Shown piece after piece: positions 1 through 20,117 of a stretch of 20,117 nt of DNA. The translations under genes were made by a program, and so were the position numbers. Source of the stretch: a virus (lineage: Duplodnaviria; Heunggongvirae; Uroviricota; Caudoviricetes); the IMG/VR virus record IMGVR_UViG_2778261163_000008, positions 1-20,117 of that record; one strand, written 5' to 3'. The notes beneath the pieces are model-generated. The model saw nothing but the letters and a program-made list of their open reading frames with translations. It ran no database searches and was not told the DNA's origin. Position 1 is the first letter of the stretch. Every line of letters starts with the position of its first letter.

Positions 1-582
1 TTACCCTATAGGTGCTACTGGCCATTCAATATCCGGTGCAGTTGATGTATCAACACGGTTCAGCAACACCCGATACTTTTTCCAGGCTTCCAGCAACAAG
101 GTTTCTTCCTCCGTTGCGATTTCCAGATCTACAGCATCCTGAAGTGGCGCAATATGCTCACTGGCTACCTGCATCAGGCTGTTTTTTGTTTCTTCTGCCT
201 CCCGGATCCGGAACAGTTTTTCTGCTTCTGCATCTTTCACCCAGGCTGTGCCGTTCCACTTCTGAAACTCCCCTTCCGGCGATAACCAGGTAACATTTTC
301 CGGTAACGGACCGAGTTCAGAAATAAATAACGCGTCCCCTGACGCTACGTCATAAACCGTTTTACCCCGATGGTCTTCATCGAGATGCCACGATGCCTTA
401 TCACTGTTGAAAACAGCCACAAAGCCAGCAGGAATATCTGGTGGTGCAATATCGGTACTGTTTGCTGGCAGACCTGTATGAGGCGGAATATATGCGTCAC
501 CTTCACCAATAAATTCATTAGTTCCGGCCAGCAGATTATAAATTTTTATGGTCCGTGGTTGTTCACTCATTCTGAATGCCAT
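1..582 (-). CDS. tfa: Tail fiber assembly protein (lambda Tfa-like chaperone), 193 aa
   Basis: Translation [24 protein letters not shown]... is near-identical to lambda/E. coli prophage Tfa proteins as I recall them. ATG at 582-580 overlaps the stf stop (TAATG); stop codon is the first 3 bases of the window. Confidence 0.9.
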
Positions 583-3500
583 TATGCAAGCCTCACAATA
601 TAGTTAAATGCGATGTTTTTGACGGTGTTTTCCGCGTTACCAGCAGCGTTAACGGTGATGGTGTGTCCATGTGAACCAATCGCAACGGAGTGCGTATGAG
701 CACCAATACCGACAGTATGCGCGTGTGCACCTGCAGATGCTGCTGTGCCGGACAGTGAATGGCTATGATTACCATCTGTACTGGTATTCGCTAACCACCC
801 CGTAGACATACCTACTGAGCCTTGTACACCCCAGGTATTTTGACCTGAGCTTGTATAACCATATTGATAAGTATCTTTAAAAACACTGGGGTTAAATCGA
901 CGGCCATCTCTATGGCTGTGATTACCAGCTGCATTCGTGCTGCCACTTAAACTATGGGTATGCGCACCAGTGTTATTCGTGGATTTAGTGCCGTAATCAA
1001 ACGACGATGTGGTTTTCGTCCCCAAATCTGTACTGGATGCGCTGGCGCTGTGGGTATGCGATTTAATGCCGTCCTGTTCCTGAGACAATACGGCCCGACC
1101 ACTGGCAGGTTTGCCCTTAATCGTCCAGCCACGCATATCAGGGATCACGCCTGACGGATAAGCGGCTGCAAGTTTCGGGTAAGCAGATTTGTCAAAAGTC
1201 TGCCCCTGCATCAGGGCATAACCAGACGGAACGGTATCTGATGGCCACGGGATTGGTGCGCCGACTGGGTAGCTTTCTGGTGGAAGATTTTTCGAGGTAT
1301 AAACTTCTGCCCAGTCATCCTCAAAACCATAACCGTCTCTTGAAGAACGGTAGAACAGACCACCATTTCTGTAATGCGCCTTCATCTGCAAGGTCCGGCA
1401 ACTTCCGACTCCGGTATAGAAGTTAACCAGAATATAGCTGTCGCCAGAGCGGGTGACATTATAAGCGCCTGATTCGGCATTCCAGGGAACGCCACCATCC
1501 GCATCGGCATATGTATCCGTTGCCCTTCTGGCAAAAGCAGCCACATGCGCGGCGGTTAAAGTAATATCTTTGGAACCATCAAACTCAACACCAGAAACCC
1601 GTCTTGGCGTTTGCAGCTTTGTTGCTGTTAATGCATTACCGTTCAGACTTGCGGACAGTTTGGTTCCAATAACCAGTTCGCCGGTTGCGTTATCAATAGC
1701 AAACGGTCTTAATGTATTCCAGCCACCATAAACATCACCTTGATTGGTAAGCAGCAGGTAAGTTTTAGCGCCATCATTACGCCATAATGCACCATACTCT
1801 CCACCTATCATTCGAATCTGATTACCACCACGCGCTACAATTTCGTCTGTGGCAAAAAGTTTTTTGCACGACAAGTTATCGTTAACGATTAACGAATGAG
1901 ACTCATAAAAACCACGCCCACTCTTAAAATCAAGGATAACGTCCGCCGCGATACATTCAGTCGCTGGATTTGTTGCCCCAAACTTATAGGTCGTATCATT
2001 AACAACGAGATCAGCACCAGGTGCGGATATTGACAGGCCATCTTCGATAAACGCAAAAACAGGGAAAGCAGCGCCATCAACATAGAACACAGAGCGCAAA
2101 TCATCGCCCTTATTACTCATCATTATTGAGTGGATGGCTCGTTCATTGTTTTGATATTGCCAGAACATTCCATAAGCATAACGCCCCCTGTCAGTCCAGC
2201 CACCAGGCATAACAAATCCGTTAAACTCGCAGTTATTCATCGGATCGCCTGCGGTTCGCGTTGCCGTGGTGATAATGACCCTTGATGCCAGTTCGCTTAC
2301 TGAGCCAGCAGAACGCATAACAACAACAGGGTAATATTTTCCAGATGTTGCACCTGCAGGAGCGTTAACCCGCACATAACGCATACCACGCTTATCAGCA
2401 AAGTCTGTTTTACTGACCGCGTTAATGTTGTTCAGGAAGCGTCCCTTATCGGGTATATCAGCGCCGTTCTGGTCTTTCTGCAGACGTTTCTCTGCATTGT
2501 CATAGGCTGATTTTACTGCCTTTGGCGTTGCCGCCAGCGTTTCAGACGTACTGTTGGTCGCACTGCTGAGCTGTACTATCCCCTTTTTCGTCGTGCTCGC
2601 ATCCTCAAGCGCCACGGCGGATGCAATATCCTCTGCCCGTTTTGCCGCTGTCTCGGCGCGCGTTGCCGCGGATTCCGCCGTACTTTTGCTCTGTGCTGCC
2701 GCCGTCGCACTGCCAGCTGCCTCTGTCGCCTTCGTGGATGCTGTCGTGGCGCTGCCCTTCGCTGCTGACGCCTGTCTGGTCGCCTCATCTTTTGAAGCAG
2801 ACGCCGATGATGCCGATGACGCCGCCGAACTGGCGGACGATGCGGCAGCCGTTTTTGAGGATTCTGCGCTGGTTTCCGACGCTTTCGCGTTCGTCTCGGA
2901 TGTCTTCGCTGCGGAAGCAGAACTCGCTGCTGCGCTGGCCTGTTCAGTGGCTTCGCCAGCCTTCGTTGTGGCTGTTGAAGCGGATGATGCGGCGCTTTCT
3001 GCCGATTTTCCGGCGGCGGTGGCACTGGCTGAGGCCTGCCCGGCACTTGTTGACGCGGCGCTGGCAGATGATGCAGCCGCTGTTTTTGAGCCTGCCGCAG
3101 CTGAGGCGCTCTGTCCCGCAGCCGTCTCAGAAGACTTAGCGTTCGTCTCGGACGTTTTTGCCGCCTTCGCGGAATTTCCTGCCGCCGTTGCCGAGGAAGT
3201 TGCGCTACTGGCGCTCGAGGATGCGTTCGTTTCTGATGATTTCGCTGCCTCTTTTGAGGCCGCCGCATCCCGGGCTGAGGTGGCAGCTTCTGACGCTTTC
3301 GTGGTCGCGGTGGATGCAGAAGTGGCTGCTGATTGTTGTGACGCTGCGGCATTCGTTTCTGACGTTTTCGCGGCACTGGCACTGGTAGCTGCCGCGCTTT
3401 TTGAGGACTCTGCAGCAGCAGCACTTTTCGATGCTTCACTGGCCTTTGTTGATGCCGTTCCTGCGCTGGAAGACGCTGACTGAGCCGACGACGCGGCCTG

Positions 3501-3980
3501 TCCGGCTGATGTGCTGGCTGCACGTGCTGAGCCTGCAGCATCAGTCGCATGGGTTGCCGCCTCACGGGCTGATGTGCCGGCATCGCTGGCTGACTTCTTC
3601 GCGGCTGCCGTGTTCTGTGCCACCGCGGACGCGTTACGCGCCACCTCTTCCACCATCAGTTCAAAACGGCGCAGTGCCTCAGGACGGGCATCATCCTCCG
3701 TCATGGCACCGAGAAAATCATTCAGCGTACCGGGTCGGGAATCTTCATACACGGTGATGGTCCCGGCATGTGACGGCGGGAATCCCTCCACCAACAGAAT
3801 AACGCTGTACTGCCCGTACTCAACGTCCATGCTGTAACGCCCGGCTTCATCCGGATTTTCTGAGGCCAGCGTGTTCACCACCACCGTGGTGCTGTTACGT
3901 TTTGCTTTCAGCTGGATTGTGCAGTTCTGTACCGGTTTTCCTGTGCCGTCTTTCAGTACACCTGAAATCTTTACTGCCAT
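582..3980 (-). CDS. stf: Side tail fiber protein (lambda Stf / StfR-like), about 1132 aa from the ATG
   Basis: N-terminus [26 protein letters not shown]... and C-terminus ...[22 protein letters not shown] match lambda Stf by recall. The ORF-track start at 3986 is a GTG two codons upstream; the ATG at 3980-3978 gives the lambda-like MAVKIS N-terminus and has a GGGGTGA Shine-Dalgarno-like motif upstream. Confidence 0.9.
2560..3640 (-). repeat. Low-complexity Ala/Ser/Thr/Lys-rich repetitive coding region inside stf
   Basis: About 350 residues dominated by degenerate repeats such as AAKTSETNA / SASSASSA / TKASEAA. This composition also creates long spurious ORFs in other frames on both strands (2554..3483 +, 2576..3583 -, 2621..3139 +). 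Confidence 0.8.
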
Positions 3981-3991
3981 ATTCACCCCAC

Positions 3992-4017
3992 AAAAAAGCC
4001 CGCCTGAACCGGCGGGC
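3992..4017 (-). terminator. Rho-independent terminator downstream of lom
   Basis: Minus strand reads GCCCGCC-GGTTCA-GGCGGGC followed by TTTTTT (7-bp GC stem, 6-nt loop, U-run), sitting between the lom stop (4045) and the stf start (3980). Confidence 0.7.
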
Positions 4018-4044
4018 TGTCATAACACTGTGTTACCTGGCTAA

Positions 4045-4644
4045 TCAGAATTTATAACCGACACCCACGATGAAACCGTCAGTGCGCCAGTCACCACTGC
4101 CGGAGCCTTCATAAGCAATATCAATGGCCACGGATTCGGTCGGGTTAAACTGCACGCCAGCCCCCCACGCCAGAGACGTGTTGCTGTGGCGACCGTCATC
4201 ACTTCCGGTCAGCACATCGTGCGTTTTCCCCTTGTTGTCAGTTACGCGGAGATAATCCCCGAAGAAAGTCGACACACGGCTGTAAGCCACACCCGCCATC
4301 GCATACACGCTGAACCATTCATTCACGCGCACAGACGGCCCCGCCATTACGCTGAACCAGCGGTTACGCACGGAATCTTCATGCCAGCGGGTATCGCTGT
4401 AATGCGTTTTTTGCTCATCTTCAGCGTTGGCATAACTGAATGACGTAATCAGCCCCAGCGTGTCCGTAAACTCATAACGGTATTTCACGTTAATCCCGTT
4501 CAGATTATCGCTGCCGGGAGCGTTCGTACGGGCATGAAGATACCCTGCGCTCAGTGTGGCCTGCTGCTCAGACGCCCATGCAGGCGCACCGGATACGGCC
4601 AGACAGATGGCTGTGGACAAAATGGCTGCACAAACTTTACGCAT
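4045..4644 (-). CDS. lom: Lom-family outer membrane protein (Ail/Lom/PagC/Rck beta-barrel family), 199 aa with signal peptide
   Basis: N-terminal signal-peptide-like [24 protein letters not shown]; C-terminus ...[25 protein letters not shown] matches lambda Lom by recall; position between J and stf as in lambda; AGAGG Shine-Dalgarno-like motif upstream of the ATG. Confidence 0.9.
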
Positions 4645-4665
4645 AATTACCTCTCGCTTTTCTGC

Positions 4666-4692
4666 AATAAAAAAGGCGCCATTTCTGGCGCC
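4666..4692 (-). terminator. Rho-independent terminator downstream of J
   Basis: Minus strand reads GGCGCC-AGAAAT-GGCGCC followed by TTTTTTATT, immediately after the J stop (4712) and before the lom ribosome binding site. Confidence 0.65.
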
Positions 4693-4711
4693 CGTATATG
4701 GGTTATAAAAT

Positions 4712-7700
4712 TCAGCTGATACTGATGCCTGCGGTGGCTTTCTTCATCACCACAACCAGCAAATCGCTGATACTTGCTGTGGGATACCAGTCATTTACCA
4801 GCCATGCTGACACCGAAAACTCCAGCGTCATGTGACCGTGACCGGCAGGCATATCAATAACGCCACTGTAAATCAGCGTATTATCCAGCGCGGTACGGTT
4901 ATAAATTTCAGCACCGTTTTTCCGCACTATCAGACGGCATGAGGAGTAAATATCAGTATGCTCTCTCTCATGTTTAGCGCCGCTGAATGCCACCGCCGGA
5001 ATAACAATCTGCCGGTCAAACGGCTGATCGTCATAAACCCTGACGGTAATGGTCCCTGATGGCCACCGTTCCGGTGCACGGGAGTCCCGGGGGAAAGCTT
5101 TGCCCACTGTTTTAACGAGATCGCCTTCAATCTGGTTCGCGGACAGTTTTCCCAGAACCCGACAGTTCTCGTTAATCGTGACGTTGTTGAGCGTCCCGGA
5201 GTTCGCATTCACGTTACCGCTGATATCGGCATTTTTCGCCGTCAGCCGCCCATCCGGTGTCAGGGAAAATGCCGGTGGATTTCCACCACTGGTAATGGTG
5301 GGGGCCGTCAGGCGTTTCAGGAACACGTCGTTCATGAATATCTGATCACCCTGACCAACAAACATCGGTTTTGTGTTGCCATTCGCAGGATTAACCATCG
5401 CAATCCTGTCCGCCGCCAGCAGCACCTGACTCTGCATGCCGTCAGGGGTGTTCTCAATACCGGCACCAATACCCGCGATATAAAGGCGTCCGTCCTGCAT
5501 CTGCTGCAGCTTCACAGCCCACATGCTGTTCAGGTTATTATTTGTATCAACCTGAACCTTCTGTATCTGCTGAATTGCCGCACTCTGGTCTTCCAGTTTC
5601 TTATTGACGGTCTGCGTGATTTCATTGCTGACATCCGTAATGGACGTCCTGATTTCAGCCAGGTCAGGCGCAAGCTGACCGTTATCAATCTGCGTCCACA
5701 GCTCCTGAGCCAGATGGGTTTTCCCTATCTCGCCTTTGAAAAAATCCAGATAGCCGGATGCATCATCGCTCGCCCGACCGACGGCCTCCACAAATGCCGA
5801 TTTGCCTACGGTGTTCACACTGCGGATATAAAAGTAATAATCATGGCCCGGTTTGATATTGATACTGGCGGCTATCCAGTACAGCGCCGTACCAAGATAG
5901 CGGGCTGTGGTTTCAACCTGCCTGATATCCGCAATCCGCTTTTCCGAGAACCAGAACTCAAACTGTACCGTCGGATCATAAACCGCAAGATGCGGCGTGG
6001 CGGTTATCTGAAAATAGCCCGGCGTCAGCTCAATCCGCGACGGCGCTGCCGGTGCGGCGATCCGGAACAATACCGATGCCGGATCGCCCTGCTGTCCCCA
6101 TGCATTTACCGCCCGGACTGTCAGCCTGTAATTTCCCAGCGCCAGCTGCGTGAAGCGATATGTGGTTTCCGTCGTCCGGGCCGTGCTGACCAACCGCTCA
6201 CTGCCGTCGTCCGCTGCCACGGTCAGGCGAAGCATAAAGCTCACCCCCTTCACCACCTTCGGCGTGTCCCAGCGCGCCAGCACCTGGTATTCCCCGCTGT
6301 CTGCGGTGACTTCTGCGGTCAGGTGCTGAACTGCTGGCGGCGTGACACCATTCACCGTGCCGCTCTGGTCACCGTCAAAGTGCGCCCCGTTATCCACGAT
6401 GGCTTCTTTCTCCGGTACATGCTGCACGGCAGTGATGGCATACGTACCGTCATCGTTCTCACGGATACTCACACAGCGGAACAGGCGCTGACGCAGCGTC
6501 GGCAGCTTCAGCCCCCACACGCTGTACTCGGCAACGCCGTCAGGAACCCGGCTCACTTTCACCTTCACGCCGTCGGTGACGGACTGGACCTCCACGCTCA
6601 CCGGATTACCCTGCCCGTCAACCAGGCTTATCAGCGTGGTGCCGGAGGATGGCAGCGTGATTTCACGGTCGAGCGTCAGTGTCCGCGTCTGGCTGTTCAC
6701 CGCCAGCACGCGCCCGCCGATGCTGATCCCCGCATAGTCATCATCACAGATTTCAATGACATCACCTGGTACATGGCGAAGCCCTTCAGCACCCACGCTG
6801 AAGTCCACGGTCTGCGTTTCCAGCAGCTCCGTTTTAATCAGCCACAGCCCGGCGCGGTGTGCCTGCCCCCGGCTGGTACAGCCAAAGGCATCCATCTTCG
6901 TGACGTTACGACCGTAACGGGCAATGGCCTGCGTATCCTCCACAAGCTCTGTCGCCGTCTCCCAGCCGTTGTCCGGGTCAATCCAGTTCACCTCAACGGC
7001 ATTATGGCGGTCCTTCAGGGCGCTGAAGCTGTAGCGGAACGGCGCGCCATCATCCGGCATCACCACATTACTGCGGTTATAGGTCCACACCTTATCTGAT
7101 GGTCGGTCCTGCACGAACGTCAGCCTCTGCCCGTTCCATACCGGCATACAGCGCATCGCCGAGCAGAAATCACTGAGCACATCCCACGCTTTTCGCTGTG
7201 TGGTCAGGTACGCATTACAGGTGATGCGCGGCTCCGTGCCGCCAAAGCCGTCCGGCACTGACTGGTCGCAGTACTGGCCGATGACATACAGCGCCCATTT
7301 ATCCACATCTGCCGCACCAAGACGTTTCCCCATGCCGTAGCGCGGGTGGGTCAGCATATCCCACAGACACCAGGCCATGTTGTTGCTGTATGCTGGCTTA
7401 AACGTTCCGTCCCAGATACCGCTGTATTGCCGCGTCTGCGGGTTATAATTCGACGGCACCTGCAGAATACGCCCGCGCAGATGATAATTACGGCTCACCT
7501 GCTGGCTGCCGAACTGCTCCGAATCCACCTGCACGCCGACCAGTGCCGTGTTCGGGTAGCACTGTTTCACATCGATGATTTCGGTGTATGACGACCAGAG
7601 CGTTTTGTTCTGCAGCTGGTCTGTGGTGCTGTCCGGCGTCATTCTGCGCATCCGGATATTAAACGGGCGCGGCGGCAGGTTATCCACCACCACCGAGGCC

Positions 7701-8191
7701 AGATACTGCGAGGTGGTTTTGCCCTTAATGGTGATGTCTTTTTCCGTCACCCAGCCACCATTACGCTGTATCTGAACCAGCAGGCGAACTTCCGACGGAT
7801 TCCGGTCCCCCTTTGAGGTGGTTTCCACCAGTGCCTGCACGCCGAAAGTAAAACGCAGACGGTCAATGTTTGCCGACGTGATGGTCCGGGTGATCGGCGT
7901 GTCATATTTCACTTCTGTACCGAGCACCGTCTCGGAGCCGGAGGATTCAAATCCCTCCGGCGGTGTCTGCTCCTGCTCACCGGCCCGGAACACCACCGTG
8001 ACGCCGGATATATTGGTATTCCCCTCACTGTCCAGCACCGGCGTACTGTTCAGCAGCACGCTTTTTAATCCATCCACCGGACCTTCAACCGGCCCTTCGC
8101 TGATGGCATCGATCACACTCAGCAGCTGCGTGGACTTCAGGTTGTCCTTCGCTTCGCGCGGGGTATGCCCCTTACTGCTGCCTTTACCCAT
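4712..8191 (-). CDS. J: Tail tip host-specificity protein J (central tail fiber), 1159 aa
   Basis: Translation [41 protein letters not shown]... is lambda-J-like over most of its length by recall; the C-terminal roughly 150 aa is lambda-like in architecture but visibly divergent; lambda-like size and position. Confidence 0.95.
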
Positions 8192-8251
8192 TCGTCATGC
8201 TCCATAAACGATAAAACCGCCCGCAGGCGGTTTCACATAAAACGTTTTTCA

Positions 8252-8899
8252 TCAGCGACCAATCACCACAACCTGACCACCGTCCCCTTCGTCTGCCGTG
8301 CTGATTTCCTGAGATACCACACGTGACCCCACGCGCATTTCACCGTACAGCACCGGTAGCGGATTACCCTGGGCAACCATGTTATCCAGTGAGGAGAAAT
8401 ACGTGTTCTGCTTTCCATTATCCGTTGTCTGTGTACGGGGGGTTCTGGGTTTGGGGGCCAGCATCTGCGCCACACCGCCCAGGATCATACTGGCCCCTGC
8501 CGCATACATACCCGATACAACCGCGGCCCCCAGCCAGCCCACAGGGTTCCACCATGCAACCGCAATCAGCGCCGCCCCCAGCACTGCCTGAAAAATACCG
8601 CCACTTTTAGCACCCGCCAGACGCGGTACGATATGGATCACGGCACCATGTTCCAGCGGCTCATTAAGACGGGCTGATAATTCGTTTTCGCCTGCATCAC
8701 GCCCGGCAATGCGCACCTGATACCAGCCATCGCTCAGTTTCTGACGAAACGCCGGGATCTGCATGGCCAGCGCCCGGATGGCTTCGGCCCCTGTTTTCAC
8801 ACGAAGGTCGATGCGGCGGCCAAATCGTTGCAAATCCCCGTAAAGGCAGATGCGTGCCATGCCCGGTGATGCCAGAGGGAGTGTGTGCGTCGCTGCCAT
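8252..8899 (-). CDS. I: Tail assembly protein I, about 215 aa
   Basis: From the ATG at 8899 the translation MAATHTLPLASPGMARICLYGDLQRFGRRIDLRVKTGAEAIRA... matches lambda I by recall. The ORF-track start at 9010 is an upstream in-frame extension that overlaps K and is probably not used. Confidence 0.85.
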   Translation of the reverse strand: MAATHTLPLASPGMARICLYGDLQRFGRRIDLRVKTGAEAIRALAMQIPAFRQKLSDGWYQVRIAGRDAGENELSARLNEPLEHGAVIHIVPRLAGAKSGGIFQAVLGAALIAVAWWNPVGWLGAAVVSGMYAAGASMILGGVAQMLAPKPRTPRTQTTDNGKQNTYFSSLDNMVAQGNPLPVLYGEMRVGSRVVSQEISTADEGDGGQVVVIGR

Positions 8900-9540
8900 T
8901 TGTCGGTATACCTCTCTCGTTTGCTCAGTTGTCCAGGAATATGGTGCAGCAGCTCGCCGTCGCCGCAGTAAATAGCGGCATGATTCGGCACCGATGAACC
9001 AAAACAGCACAGCAGCACATCGCCCGGCTGCGCCGCTGACAACGGCACCTGATACAGCCCCGTTGCCTCCATATTATCCAGATAGAGATTCTGACCGTGA
9101 CGCCACCAGTCATCCTCACGATGAAAATCCGGCATCTCAATTCCCGCCAGATGGTAAGCATCCCGGAACAGCGTGTAACAGTCCGTCACCCCGTGCTCAA
9201 AGCGCCGCCCGGTAAGATGCGGCACACAGCGGAACTTGTGAATCGCCCCCCGGCAGACCAGCCACCACGGCAAATCACTCTGCACCTGCAGCCGCCGGTC
9301 AGCCTCACTCAGCCAGGGCAGAGCACCGGGGTGACTGTGGACCAGCGCCACAATCTCACCCTGCATTTCTGCCCGCAGCCAGTCCTCCGGAGCCATCCGG
9401 AAATACGCCTCCGGCTCACCGGAGATATTCACGCAGGGAAAATATCTTTCCCCTTCCGGCGTTCTCACCACGAAGCCGCACGACTCCGCTGGCGCACATC
9501 GCCGGGCGTGCGCCAGAATCGCTGATTCTGTCTCTGTCAT
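8797..9540 (-). CDS. K: Tail assembly protein K (JAB/MPN-like plus NlpC/P60-like domains), 247 aa
   Basis: Translation MTETESAILAHARRCAPAESCGFVV...EIVALVHSHPG (JAB/MPN-type motif) followed by GVTDCYTLFRDAYHLAGIEMPDF...NHAAIYCGDGELLHHIP (NlpC/P60-like); lambda-K-like by recall. The 3' end overlaps the start of I out of frame. Confidence 0.85.
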   Translation of the reverse strand: MTETESAILAHARRCAPAESCGFVVRTPEGERYFPCVNISGEPEAYFRMAPEDWLRAEMQGEIVALVHSHPGALPWLSEADRRLQVQSDLPWWLVCRGAIHKFRCVPHLTGRRFEHGVTDCYTLFRDAYHLAGIEMPDFHREDDWWRHGQNLYLDNMEATGLYQVPLSAAQPGDVLLCCFGSSVPNHAAIYCGDGELLHHIPGQLSKRERYTDKWQRRTHSLWHHRAWHASAFTGICNDLAAASTFV

Positions 9541-9545
9541 GGGAT

Positions 9546-10244
9546 TTACTGCGAAAGTTTGTTAATGGAAAGGAAGCCGCCAAAGTTGCCGACGTTATTG
9601 CGAAACTTACAGCCACTCAGGCATTTGCTGCATTTATCCTTCGTGATATCGGACGTCGGCTGATCATATTCATCCGCGACCGCCGGACCGTGATAACCGC
9701 ACTCATCACCGCGATAGGTCCAGGTGCAGGTATTAGCCAGCATGATGCGGCCCGGAAAAACAGCGCCGTCCGTTTCCGTCGGCGTGGACAGTACAAAGGA
9801 GGCACTGACCGCGCTCAGTTCGCTGCACTGCTCAATGCGCCAGCGGCTGATTACCTCCTGCTCCGGATCGGCGTCACTGTTTCCGTTGACGAAGTTCACC
9901 GCATCCAGAAAACGGGCGTAAACCTTACGCCTGACCACCGTTCCGCCGACCAGACTCTGCAGGTCTTCCGCCATCCCGGTGACCATGCCGTGCAGATTAG
10001 AGACTTTCAGCGTTGGCCTTGCACTGGCTCCTTTGCCGTTCATCTCAAATCCACTCCCCTGAATGGGATAGGCCTGATACTGCCGCCCCTGCCAGGTGAC
10101 TGGTTCACCTTTTTCGTTCTGCTCATTACAGAAGAAATAACGATCTCCGCCGACCTCTGTCAGATCAATTTCCCAGAGCACGATCAGCGCGGATTGCTCC
10201 GTTTTAGTGCACTCATTGAGTGTTTCCTGCTGTATATCCTGCAT
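9546..10244 (-). CDS. L: Tail tip assembly protein L, 232 aa
   Basis: Translation MQDIQQETLNECTKTEQSALIVLWEIDLTEVGGDRYFFCNEQNEKGEPVTWQGRQYQAYPIQGSGFE... with conserved cysteines near the C-terminus, lambda-L-like by recall. Its ATG overlaps the stop of M (TGATG). Confidence 0.9.
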   Translation of the reverse strand: MQDIQQETLNECTKTEQSALIVLWEIDLTEVGGDRYFFCNEQNEKGEPVTWQGRQYQAYPIQGSGFEMNGKGASARPTLKVSNLHGMVTGMAEDLQSLVGGTVVRRKVYARFLDAVNFVNGNSDADPEQEVISRWRIEQCSELSAVSASFVLSTPTETDGAVFPGRIMLANTCTWTYRGDECGYHGPAVADEYDQPTSDITKDKCSKCLSGCKFRNNVGNFGGFLSINKLSQ

Positions 10245-18063: not shown

Positions 18064-18663
18064 TTATGCATTAAGAAGGGTCAAAAGACGCTCACGCGCC
18101 ATTCGTTCGTTAACAGCTTTCTTCAGCGCACCACTCGCCCGCGCTTCCTGCCAGGCTTTCATTGAGCGGACACCAGAGTCTGCGTCCTGATAGGCCGGAT
18201 ATGTCACCGGGCTGACGTCATACAGACGAGAAATGCGCGTGATTTCCCGGATAACAATCCCCTCGTCGTCTTCATACCAGCTCTCTCCGTCACGGGCGAC
18301 ACGAAACGCGAACGAGGACTGATTAATGTCACCACGCAACATTGGAGACAGCACCAGGTCACAAATAGTCGGAGTATCCGGTGCAACAATGTCATAACGT
18401 AAACCGCGTTCATCCACCGACAATGACAACGTGCCGGCAGAACTTCGTCCGAGAATGAAATTAGGATCATGATTAAACAAGCCACGTACATCATCATTCA
18501 GTACATCATCAAAAGCCCCCGGCTTGATGATTTCACGAAATCCCCACAGAGGTTCTGAACGACTGTTAAATACCGAGCCATACCCCAGAATGTGGGTCGG
18601 GGCATTATCATATTGTTCCGCCCGCACCTCCCCGCTGTAACAGCGCGTTTCACGGTCATTCAT
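18064..18663 (-). CDS. Prohead maturation protease, HK97 family (S78/U35-like), 199 aa
   Basis: Position between portal and major capsid; size and sequence pattern typical of HK97-type prohead proteases; ATG lies within the last codons of the portal gene. Confidence 0.8.
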   Translation of the reverse strand: MNDRETRCYSGEVRAEQYDNAPTHILGYGSVFNSRSEPLWGFREIIKPGAFDDVLNDDVRGLFNHDPNFILGRSSAGTLSLSVDERGLRYDIVAPDTPTICDLVLSPMLRGDINQSSFAFRVARDGESWYEDDEGIVIREITRISRLYDVSPVTYPAYQDADSGVRSMKAWQEARASGALKKAVNERMARERLLTLLNA

Positions 18664-19882
18664 CGTTCTTTTCCTCTTTGCCTTTCGTATCTTTAAAGTT
18701 ATTCAACGGATTTGCTGCATTTACGCTGACCAGCATTTCATCCAGACCGTCAACCGGGTTCATATCCTCAAATGCCCTGGCTTCATTCCGACTCATCCAG
18801 CCATCTGTAATGGCAAAGTGATAGAACTGCGCACGCTCCTGTGGGGTCCCACGGAGCAACCCCGTGAGGTTGAAACGAACGTAATACCCGGCAGCCCGTT
18901 CTGTACGGGTAAACAGGCGACGGTTAAGCTCCTGCTCCCAGTTCGCAACCCAGGGCATCATCGTGTAGCGAACAAACTGAATCGCCTGCTGCGTAATATT
19001 CGAAAATGTGGCTTTTTCCAGGTCATTAATCATGTGCGCCGGGACATTAAAAATCCCGGCAATCATCGACCGGTTCAGCTTGGTCATATCAATGATCTGA
19101 GCATCCACCGGAGAAACTGTCAGAGCGCGGTAATCCAGTTGCGCAGGCAGCAACATGGTTTTATTTTCCTGGCTGCGAAGCGCTGTCACCGCCCGCTGCC
19201 ACATATTTTTAAGCCTGCCCCAGCTTTGTTCGTTCAGTTCATTTTTCACAGAAATAATACCGGCAGGACGGGCATTACCGTTAAAAAAGGCGCTGGTATA
19301 CTGCTGGCCACTCATTCCCATACCAATGGTTTCAGCATGCTGCATGATCGGGCTCAGTCCCATTTTCTGATTGTTTCCCAGCGCCCTGATATGGATCATG
19401 TCGTCCGGACTTACCGCAAATGCACCCTCTTCGTTATACACCCCGTAAGTATGACGCCCACCGGTGTTAAGTAACGTGGTTTCCCATGGCATACAGCATT
19501 CAAGGCTGGTAACCTCTCCACGACGATTACGTTTTACCCACGTATAACCATTGCCCCACCCCAGCACATGACGCTGCTTCAGTTCCCGCCACTTATAGCT
19601 GGTCTGCCAGGCATTCGGTTCATCATGAACGAGCCAGAACAACGGATGATCGCGTGCAGGCTGAACATGCTCATTCGTTTTTCGCATCACATGCAGGGGC
19701 ATCTGAGCCACACTGGATGAAATAACATAAATACAGGCATAGACAGCAGCCAGCTTCATGGATGTTTCCGGACTGACATACACATCCCGGGCAAAAATAT
19801 TATCCGTCTCAGCGGCCTCTCCGGTTACCGGAACCGAGGGATTTTCCAGAGGCTCACTGCGAAACAGAGCATCAAGAAGCAT
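18656..19882 (-). CDS. Portal protein, HK97 family, 408 aa
   Basis: About 400 aa protein upstream of protease and capsid; sequence pattern typical of HK97-family portals; GAGGAG motif 5 nt upstream of the ATG. Confidence 0.85.
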   Translation of the reverse strand: MLLDALFRSEPLENPSVPVTGEAAETDNIFARDVYVSPETSMKLAAVYACIYVISSSVAQMPLHVMRKTNEHVQPARDHPLFWLVHDEPNAWQTSYKWRELKQRHVLGWGNGYTWVKRNRRGEVTSLECCMPWETTLLNTGGRHTYGVYNEEGAFAVSPDDMIHIRALGNNQKMGLSPIMQHAETIGMGMSGQQYTSAFFNGNARPAGIISVKNELNEQSWGRLKNMWQRAVTALRSQENKTMLLPAQLDYRALTVSPVDAQIIDMTKLNRSMIAGIFNVPAHMINDLEKATFSNITQQAIQFVRYTMMPWVANWEQELNRRLFTRTERAAGYYVRFNLTGLLRGTPQERAQFYHFAITDGWMSRNEARAFEDMNPVDGLDEMLVSVNAANPLNNFKDTKGKEEKNDE

Positions 19883-20117
19883 GTTTTCTCCTCATGGACA
19901 CCACCAGTGCATAAAGCAGCAACAAACAGCCCGACAGCATCAGAGACGCTGGCAGACCTGCATACAGATAAACGCCAGCAGTGAGCAAACCGAAACCGAT
20001 CAGCCCGGTCATATCAGTAATACCGGAAAGCGCAATGTGTTTTAGTAGCGAAATGCGGCGCGGGTCGGCGAATAATTTTTGTTGGAGCTTAAGGGTGAGA
20101 AGGATTTCGGCCTGCAT
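19872..20117 (-). CDS. Chimeric ORF: ModE N-terminal 32 residues fused in frame to a 49-residue hydrophobic tail (81 aa); probably a junction artefact rather than a native gene
   Basis: First 32 residues MQAEILLTLKLQQKLFADPRRISLLKHIALSG match the N-terminus of E. coli ModE as I recall it; the rest (ITDMTGLIGFGLLTAGVYLYAGLPASLMLSGCLLLLYALVVSMRRKHAS) is unrelated and strongly hydrophobic. The stop overlaps the portal start. Confidence 0.45.
   Translation of the reverse strand: MQAEILLTLKLQQKLFADPRRISLLKHIALSGITDMTGLIGFGLLTAGVYLYAGLPASLMLSGCLLLLYALVVSMRRKHAS
20022..20117 (-). pseudogene. modE: 5' fragment (codons 1-32) of molybdate-responsive transcriptional regulator gene modE, truncated at a junction with prophage DNA
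   Basis: Recalled identity of the encoded 32 aa to the ModE N-terminus; similarity ends abruptly after ...HIALSG at about position 20021. Confidence 0.5.

Follow-up and report, generated by a model that had tools for sequence, protein, structure and literature searches.

In the 20,117-nt window analysed here (the whole stretch of DNA, with positions counted from its first letter), the head genes of a prophage are preceded by the beginning of a host gene, modE, and the Pfam content, which runs from the portal gene to tail-fibre assembly, includes no terminase gene, as the original prediction had noted. How did a piece of the core chromosome come to lie immediately upstream of a phage portal gene, and was the terminase lost in the process? 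The original prediction proposed a deletion or rearrangement that removed the terminase and probably the early region, and considered a link to the gal operon and the lambda attachment site. The features on which the discussion below is based are listed in Table 1.

Structure of the Junction

The ORF directly upstream of the portal gene is a chimera (MQAEILLTLKLQQKLFADPRRISLLKHIALSG joined to ITDMTGLIGFGLLTAGVYLYAGLPASLMLSGCLLLLYALVVSMRRKHAS). Its residues 1-32 are identical to residues 1-32 of K-12 ModE, and thousands of genomes match the corresponding 96 nt (window 20117-20022) in modE at 100% identity, so that modE had been correctly recognised, in the orientation of the portal gene. When window 19300-20117 was compared by megablast with 5,426 complete E. 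coli genomes, the query was split cleanly: positions 1-95/96 matched modE, whereas positions 96-818 (from window 20022) matched a prophage region annotated as 'hypothetical protein' and 'phage portal protein', with 100% identity in many genomes, and this phage homology continues without a mismatch into the portal gene. The break, expected at about 20021, thus falls at 20022/20021, where a single T at window 20022, the only nucleotide shared at the join, is common to both parents; the non-modE stretch before the portal ATG (19882), estimated at about 140 nt, is 139 nt long. Although one match spanned at least 80% of the query in 630 of these genomes, the top coverage was 88%, and the two parts were joined in none of the 5,426. 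The exact 81-aa chimeric protein occurs on two NCBI contigs and forms a singleton protein cluster. That the fusion is in frame is explained by chance (one in three) and needs no added explanation.

Table 1. Features at and around the modE/phage junction, in window coordinates.
Feature	Position	Strand	Basis
Rest of HK97-type head and lambda-type tail module, to tail-fibre assembly	1..18663	(-)	Pfam content
Phage portal gene, PF04860, intact; 11-nt overlap with the small ORF	18656..19882	(-)	
Chimeric in-frame ORF, 81 aa (ModE 1-32 + phage ORF residues 5-53)	19872..20117	(-)	translation
3' part (codons 5-53 and stop) of the native phage gene encoding a small, hydrophobic 53-aa protein	19872..20021	(-)	
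Predicted right copy of 5-bp target-site duplication, TATTA (ATTAC if the shared T belongs to modE)	20018..20022	(-)	
modE codons 1-32, distal 96 nt of the 242-nt host passenger	20022..20117	(-)	100% identity
Putative surrogate IRR ATTGCGCTTTCCGG, last 14 nt of passenger DNA	20023..20036	(-)	partial IRR/IRL similarity

What Normally Precedes the Portal Gene

In strain EBJ003 (L001), the gene order is HNH endonuclease, terS (P27 family), terL, a 53-aa hypothetical protein (WP_000811487.1), portal, S78 protease, and major capsid. The same protein, WP_000811487.1, is encoded in strain Evo1 (L002), before the portal gene and behind a truncated terL, and sequenced phages as well as 630 complete E. 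coli genomes have a 53-aa ORF that separates terL from portal; in vB_EcoS-640R1, PhiR49_2, Evi, and other Escherichia phages, terL, the small ORF, and portal are contiguous, with 98-99.8% nucleotide identity. The small ORF has a GTG start codon, which overlaps the stop of terL (GTGA). Its product, beginning MKQLITDMTG..., is a small membrane protein, hydrophobic over most of its length according to its hydropathy, and belongs to phrog_7105 over its full length (E=9e-20). The chimera matches phrog_7105 at profile positions 5-52 only, via its residues 33-80, and phage sequence after the junction resumes, at 100% identity, 11 nt into the native small gene. Because the relatives carry a 53-aa gene and phrog_7105 is matched from position 5, the phage half of the chimera is the native gene minus its first four codons, which the small ORF of this prophage has lost.

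Whether related intact phages carry the upstream ORF as a native gene, a point on which the original prediction depended, has a divided answer: a native small ORF does exist in this position and supplies the C-terminal 49 aa, but it is 53 and not 81 codons long. A native 81-aa phage gene was considered and rejected, as the gene of the relatives encodes 53 aa and only residues 33-81 of the chimera match phrog_7105.

A separate observation concerns Evo1, in which the small ORF-portal module (L002 5250-5993) lies behind a 5'-truncated terL, directly upstream of which there is a second, different HK97-like head/terminase module; this arrangement suggests tandem or recombined prophages.

Host DNA and ISEcp1 Beyond the Window

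The chimera is located on the NCBI draft contig NTPF01000009.1 (GCA_002464245.1, 182,736 bp), 273 nt from the contig end, and the reverse complement of the window is identical to this contig over the 10,246 nt of locus L003. Past the window end, the contig continues for 146 nt of the host segment and then for 127 nt of ISEcp1. Thus, of the 369 nt upstream of the junction, host DNA comprises only 242 nt (L003 128-369), made up of acrZ codons 1-6 (18 nt, antisense), the 128-nt acrZ-modE intergenic region, and modE nt 1-96, and it is colinear with the native acrZ-modE locus at 100% identity. The modE promoter region and part of acrZ are therefore present in the flank beyond 20117, where the original prediction had suggested looking for them, but the host DNA then stops: it directly abuts the right inverted repeat (IRR) of ISEcp1, and the IRR faces this segment.

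The remaining 127 nt (L003 1-127) are 100% identical to the right end of ISEcp1, finishing in the IRR ACGTGGAATTTAGG. This sequence is present in multiple copies, at approximately 2,000 places on E. coli plasmids and in >5,000 PLSDB plasmids at >99% identity. In pC15-1a, for example, it lies between the 'IS1380-like element ISEcp1 family transposase' gene and blaCTX-M-15; the IRR ends 48 bp ahead of the bla start codon, and the left inverted repeat (IRL), CCTAGATTCTACGT, is situated 1,656 bp upstream. The element is oriented toward the host segment and the portal gene, i.e., the same way as the late operon. Within it, a promoter-like site (TTGAAA-18-TACAAT, 10/12 match) is found at L003 24-53, and no terminator-like site was found between this site and the portal gene.

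The contig end falls exactly 127 nt inside ISEcp1. De Bruijn assembly with k=127 yields contigs that end 127 nt into the repeat when a multi-copy IS is encountered, and it is therefore reasonable to infer that this genome contains multiple copies of ISEcp1. Alternatively, a truncated ISEcp1 remnant could be the source of the 127 nt. On complete E. coli chromosomes, varied genes are found next to the right end of ISEcp1, which lies, for instance, within rpoS in 2020N21-246-1 and in a LysR-family gene in CH427; chromosomal insertions of ISEcp1 outside resistance contexts are therefore common.

The Prophage and Its Integration Site

By Pfam content, the prophage has an HK97-type head (portal PF04860, S78 protease, and PF05065 capsid) and lambda-type tail genes; the module downstream of the portal gene encodes the S78 protease, major capsid, connectors, tail tube, chaperones G/T, tape measure, M/L/K/I/J, Lom, tail fibre, and tail-fibre assembly proteins. 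Beyond window position 1, the tail-fibre assembly gene is followed by a 1.5-kb gene-free stretch and then by yodB, zinT, msrQ, msrP, hiuH, hprR, hprS, and hchA. The last 630 nt of the gene-free stretch (L004 11442-12071) correspond to the K-12 yodB-serU spacer and a 62-nt 3' part of serU, which places attR at serU/yodB, approximately 0.9 kb past window position 1; a segment of 78 nt has a further match in the intact serU that borders attL in the equivalent prophage of strain H2. In lambdoid prophages, the late genes usually run toward attR, and strain H2 has the layout serU, int, early genes, (internal deletion), J', lom, stf, tfa, yodB. The attR found here is a normal one, and this lambdoid prophage is integrated at the tRNA-Ser gene serU, with its late operon directed toward attR. 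On the K-12 map, modE (793,856-794,644) and yodB/serU (2,042,368-2,043,557) are approximately 1.25 Mb apart, which contradicts the proposed link to gal and the lambda attachment site.

Several further observations were made on this prophage and its relatives. The first approximately 860 nt of the gene-free stretch (L004 10583-12071) are phage-side DNA shared with strain H2 at 99.8%. The H2 prophage (L008, NZ_CP028733.1 1951554-1971088), which occupies the same serU site, has a frameshifted integrase and lacks the late regulator, most of the tail, and all that normally lies between them, its early genes being followed directly by a 5'-truncated J. Relatives of the prophage thus appear often to have decayed by other routes, as in Evo1, in which terL is truncated, or in H2, with its deletion. 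Within the window, a slippery heptamer, AAAAAAG (window 14163; 14154-14170, minus), occurs just before the stop of the PF06222 chaperone gene (14154..14525), after which comes the PF06223 'tail T' ORF (13852..14130), and the site looks like a conserved -1 programmed frameshift of the lambda G/GT type. An Ail/Lom-family outer-membrane beta-barrel gene (PF06316, window 4045-4644, minus), located between the J-like tail tip and tail fibre genes, is a typical lambdoid moron. Finally, the tail K-like JAB/NlpC_P60 gene (8797..9540) and the tail I-like gene (8252..8899) within window 8252-9540 (minus) overlap by approximately 100 nt as called, and the start of the I-like gene may be mis-chosen.

A Probable ISEcp1 Transposition Unit as the Source of the Junction

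One-ended transposition, by which ISEcp1 mobilises the DNA beside its right end using the IRL and poorly matching surrogate ends, is known for this element, as are its 5-bp, usually AT-rich target duplications and the outward promoter that it supplies to adjacent DNA (PMC12589106, PMC6061673). The modE'/phage junction is probably the right-hand end of such a transposition unit, which landed in the small phage ORF. The strongest argument is topological: the IRR is adjacent to the host segment and on the correct side of it, and it is unlikely that this is a coincidence. Indeed, with 16 IS copies assumed, the chance that an unrelated breakpoint would fall at most 242 nt downstream of an IRR is roughly 16 x 242 / 5e6, i.e., <1e-3. 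Moreover, the presence of modE DNA at serU, 1.25 Mb from modE, leaves only a transposed copy or a megabase-scale rearrangement as its source.

The history of the unit would comprise three steps. The IS/acrZ junction indicates that ISEcp1 would first have inserted into acrZ codon 6, at the target TTTTA, with its IRR and outward promoter toward modE. As is known of ISEcp1 behaviour, its transposase would then have bypassed its own IRR in a one-ended transposition and used a surrogate end 241-242 nt downstream, inside modE codons 28-32, thereby mobilising a unit of approximately 1.9 kb that consisted of ISEcp1 (1,656 bp) and the acrZ'-intergenic-modE' fragment. Finally, this unit would have inserted into the AT-rich 5' end of the 53-aa ORF, in the terL-portal interval of the serU prophage; for this last step, the right junction is seen directly, and the left junction is deduced. 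The left flank is predicted to show the terL end ...TTCTGTGAAACAGC(T)TATTA followed by a complete ISEcp1 with its IRL, in full terL-GTGAAACAGCT-TATTA-IRL, with the left end of ISEcp1 beginning CCTAGATTCTACGTCAG. In the simplest version, terS and terL would be undeleted and would lie just to the left of the IS on another contig, because short-read assembly breaks in a multi-copy IS. The outward promoter of ISEcp1 and the modE promoter region now point into the portal and head genes, which agrees with the earlier suggestion that the structural genes might be read from a host promoter.

The predicted right-hand copy of the target-site duplication was placed by comparing L003, base by base, with native modE and with the uninterrupted phage. 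The putative surrogate end ATTGCGCTTTCCGG is identical to the IRR ACGTGGAATTTAGG at 6/14 positions and to the IRL complement at 5/14, the terminal GG included. Matches of 6/14 or better occur at 10.6% of native-locus positions, or at 1.5% if the terminal GG is required, and the score is not significant alone. Experimentally observed ISEcp1 surrogate ends have 4-11/14 bases in common with the IRL, and a published example, GCGCAGTTTTTCGA, has 7/14; the score of ATTGCGCTTTCCGG is inside this range, a weak match typical of such ends. The predicted target pentamer, TATTA, is AT-rich.

An ISEcp1-in-acrZ donor junction is absent from the 5,426 complete E. coli genomes and PLSDB plasmids, as is any other copy of the ISEcp1-acrZ'-modE' unit, which, among complete E. 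coli genomes and PLSDB, is private to this lineage. Because neither a donor nor another copy of the unit was found, the two-step history rests on this lineage alone. Neither the predicted left junction nor the right junction gave a match in a pattern scan of public genome and metagenome contig collections, and a literature search for ISEcp1 together with modE returned nothing specific ('mode' also matches the ordinary word).

Alternative Explanations

It is conceivable, although unlikely, that ISEcp1 made the junction but terL is no longer adjacent, so that the head-tail module has been split from its terminase. This could have occurred through intramolecular replicative transposition, with an inversion of approximately 1.25 Mb between two inverted copies of the unit, or through later homologous recombination between ISEcp1 copies, by which the left half of the prophage was deleted or moved elsewhere. 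The right-junction data fit equally here, and the left side is out of sight behind the contig break in the IS; the 127-nt contig end suggests that the genome contains several copies of ISEcp1, and many relatives of the prophage have decayed (the truncated terL of L002, the large internal deletion of H2). However, an extra event or a less documented transposition outcome would be needed, and no data call for it. An origin independent of the IS, i.e., illegitimate recombination between modE codon 32 and the prophage that produced a large inversion or translocation, with the ISEcp1 in acrZ being coincidental, is very unlikely. In its favour, illegitimate joins typically show as little microhomology as the 1 nt seen at the junction, and the match to a surrogate IRR is weak in statistical terms. 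On the K-12 map, modE and yodB/serU lie on opposite sides of the terminus region, and the chromosome could tolerate an inversion across the terminus. Such an origin, however, leaves the IRR that faces the junction at a distance of 242 nt to chance (<1e-3). Furthermore, the reciprocal product, MKQL+ModE(33-262), is absent from a collection of 15 billion proteins that includes this assembly, a weak test that depends on the allele and on the start-codon call.

The deletion in the gal/modE region put forward by the original prediction, in which a neighbouring lambdoid prophage would have lost its early region and terminase, would account for a window without terminase genes and for modE' directly upstream of the portal gene, but it is now highly improbable. 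The host DNA ends after only 242 nt, at the IRR of ISEcp1; the prophage occupies the serU/yodB site, has a normal attR, and is 1.25 Mb away from modE; and joining these loci would remove approximately one-quarter of the chromosome. The reservation already made at the time, that the orientation does not fit a simple K-12-like deletion, was well founded. There is similarly next to no probability that the contig is chimeric through misassembly. The junction, 368 nt away from where the contig ends, comes from a draft assembly of short reads and occurs in no complete genome, but the two parents share 1 nt at the join, so that a mis-join in a k-mer graph would require chimeric reads; the exact chimeric ORF is present on two NCBI contigs of different length classes, and the architecture is exactly that which ISEcp1 biology predicts.

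Relation to Known Systems and Implications

Read as the end of an ISEcp1 transposition unit, the junction is most probably a new instance of a known mechanism, and no new mechanism is indicated. The closest counterparts are ISEcp1-blaCTX-M-15-orf477 and ISEcp1-blaCMY-2 (Poirel 2005, Lartigue 2006, as cited in PMC12589106; PMC6061673). Like these units, the one described here carries IRR-proximal DNA up to a boundary formed by a putative, degenerate surrogate IRR, has an AT-rich target, and has an outward TTGAAA/TACAAT promoter reading into the cargo. In contrast to them, it carries 242 nt of non-coding and 5'-gene DNA from the E. coli core chromosome, with neither a resistance gene nor an obvious selectable function, its target was the late operon of a prophage and not a plasmid, and it is known from its right end alone. 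With respect to the HK97-headed, lambda-tailed phages that have the order HNH-terS(P27)-terL-53aa-portal (vB_EcoS-640R1, PhiR49_2, Evi), the order of the head and tail genes is the same, and the nucleotide identity across the small ORF and portal is 100% to prophages and 98-99.8% to sequenced phages, whereas the small ORF is here broken after codon 4 and terL is off the contig. Lambda dgal-like transducing fusions and deletion-derived cryptic prophages likewise show an abrupt host/phage junction in the late region; however, these contain long colinear host DNA from beside the attachment site, whereas the host DNA here is 242 nt long, originates 1.25 Mb away, and is bounded by an IS.

A host/phage fusion at the end of a contig thus mimicked a terminase deletion, and it is best read as IS passenger DNA; the 'missing' genes are probably missing from the contig only. 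This calls for caution with similar junctions. It is also quite doubtful whether the prophage is still inducible and packages the approximately 1.9-kb ISEcp1 unit between terL and portal, with the IS and modE promoters constitutively transcribing the chimera and the head genes. If this were true, ISEcp1, which is the principal mobiliser of blaCTX-M genes, would have a temperate phage as a vehicle, and transcription of the head genes in the lysogen would be independent of phage late control. If the prophage is viable, a phage-borne copy of ISEcp1 would bear on the spread of the blaCTX-M mobiliser. More generally, the preferred reading, that of an ISEcp1 unit inserted between terL and portal, would mean that ISEcp1 gathers and scatters small, unselected pieces of the core chromosome, beyond resistance genes, and that its targets include the late operons of prophages.
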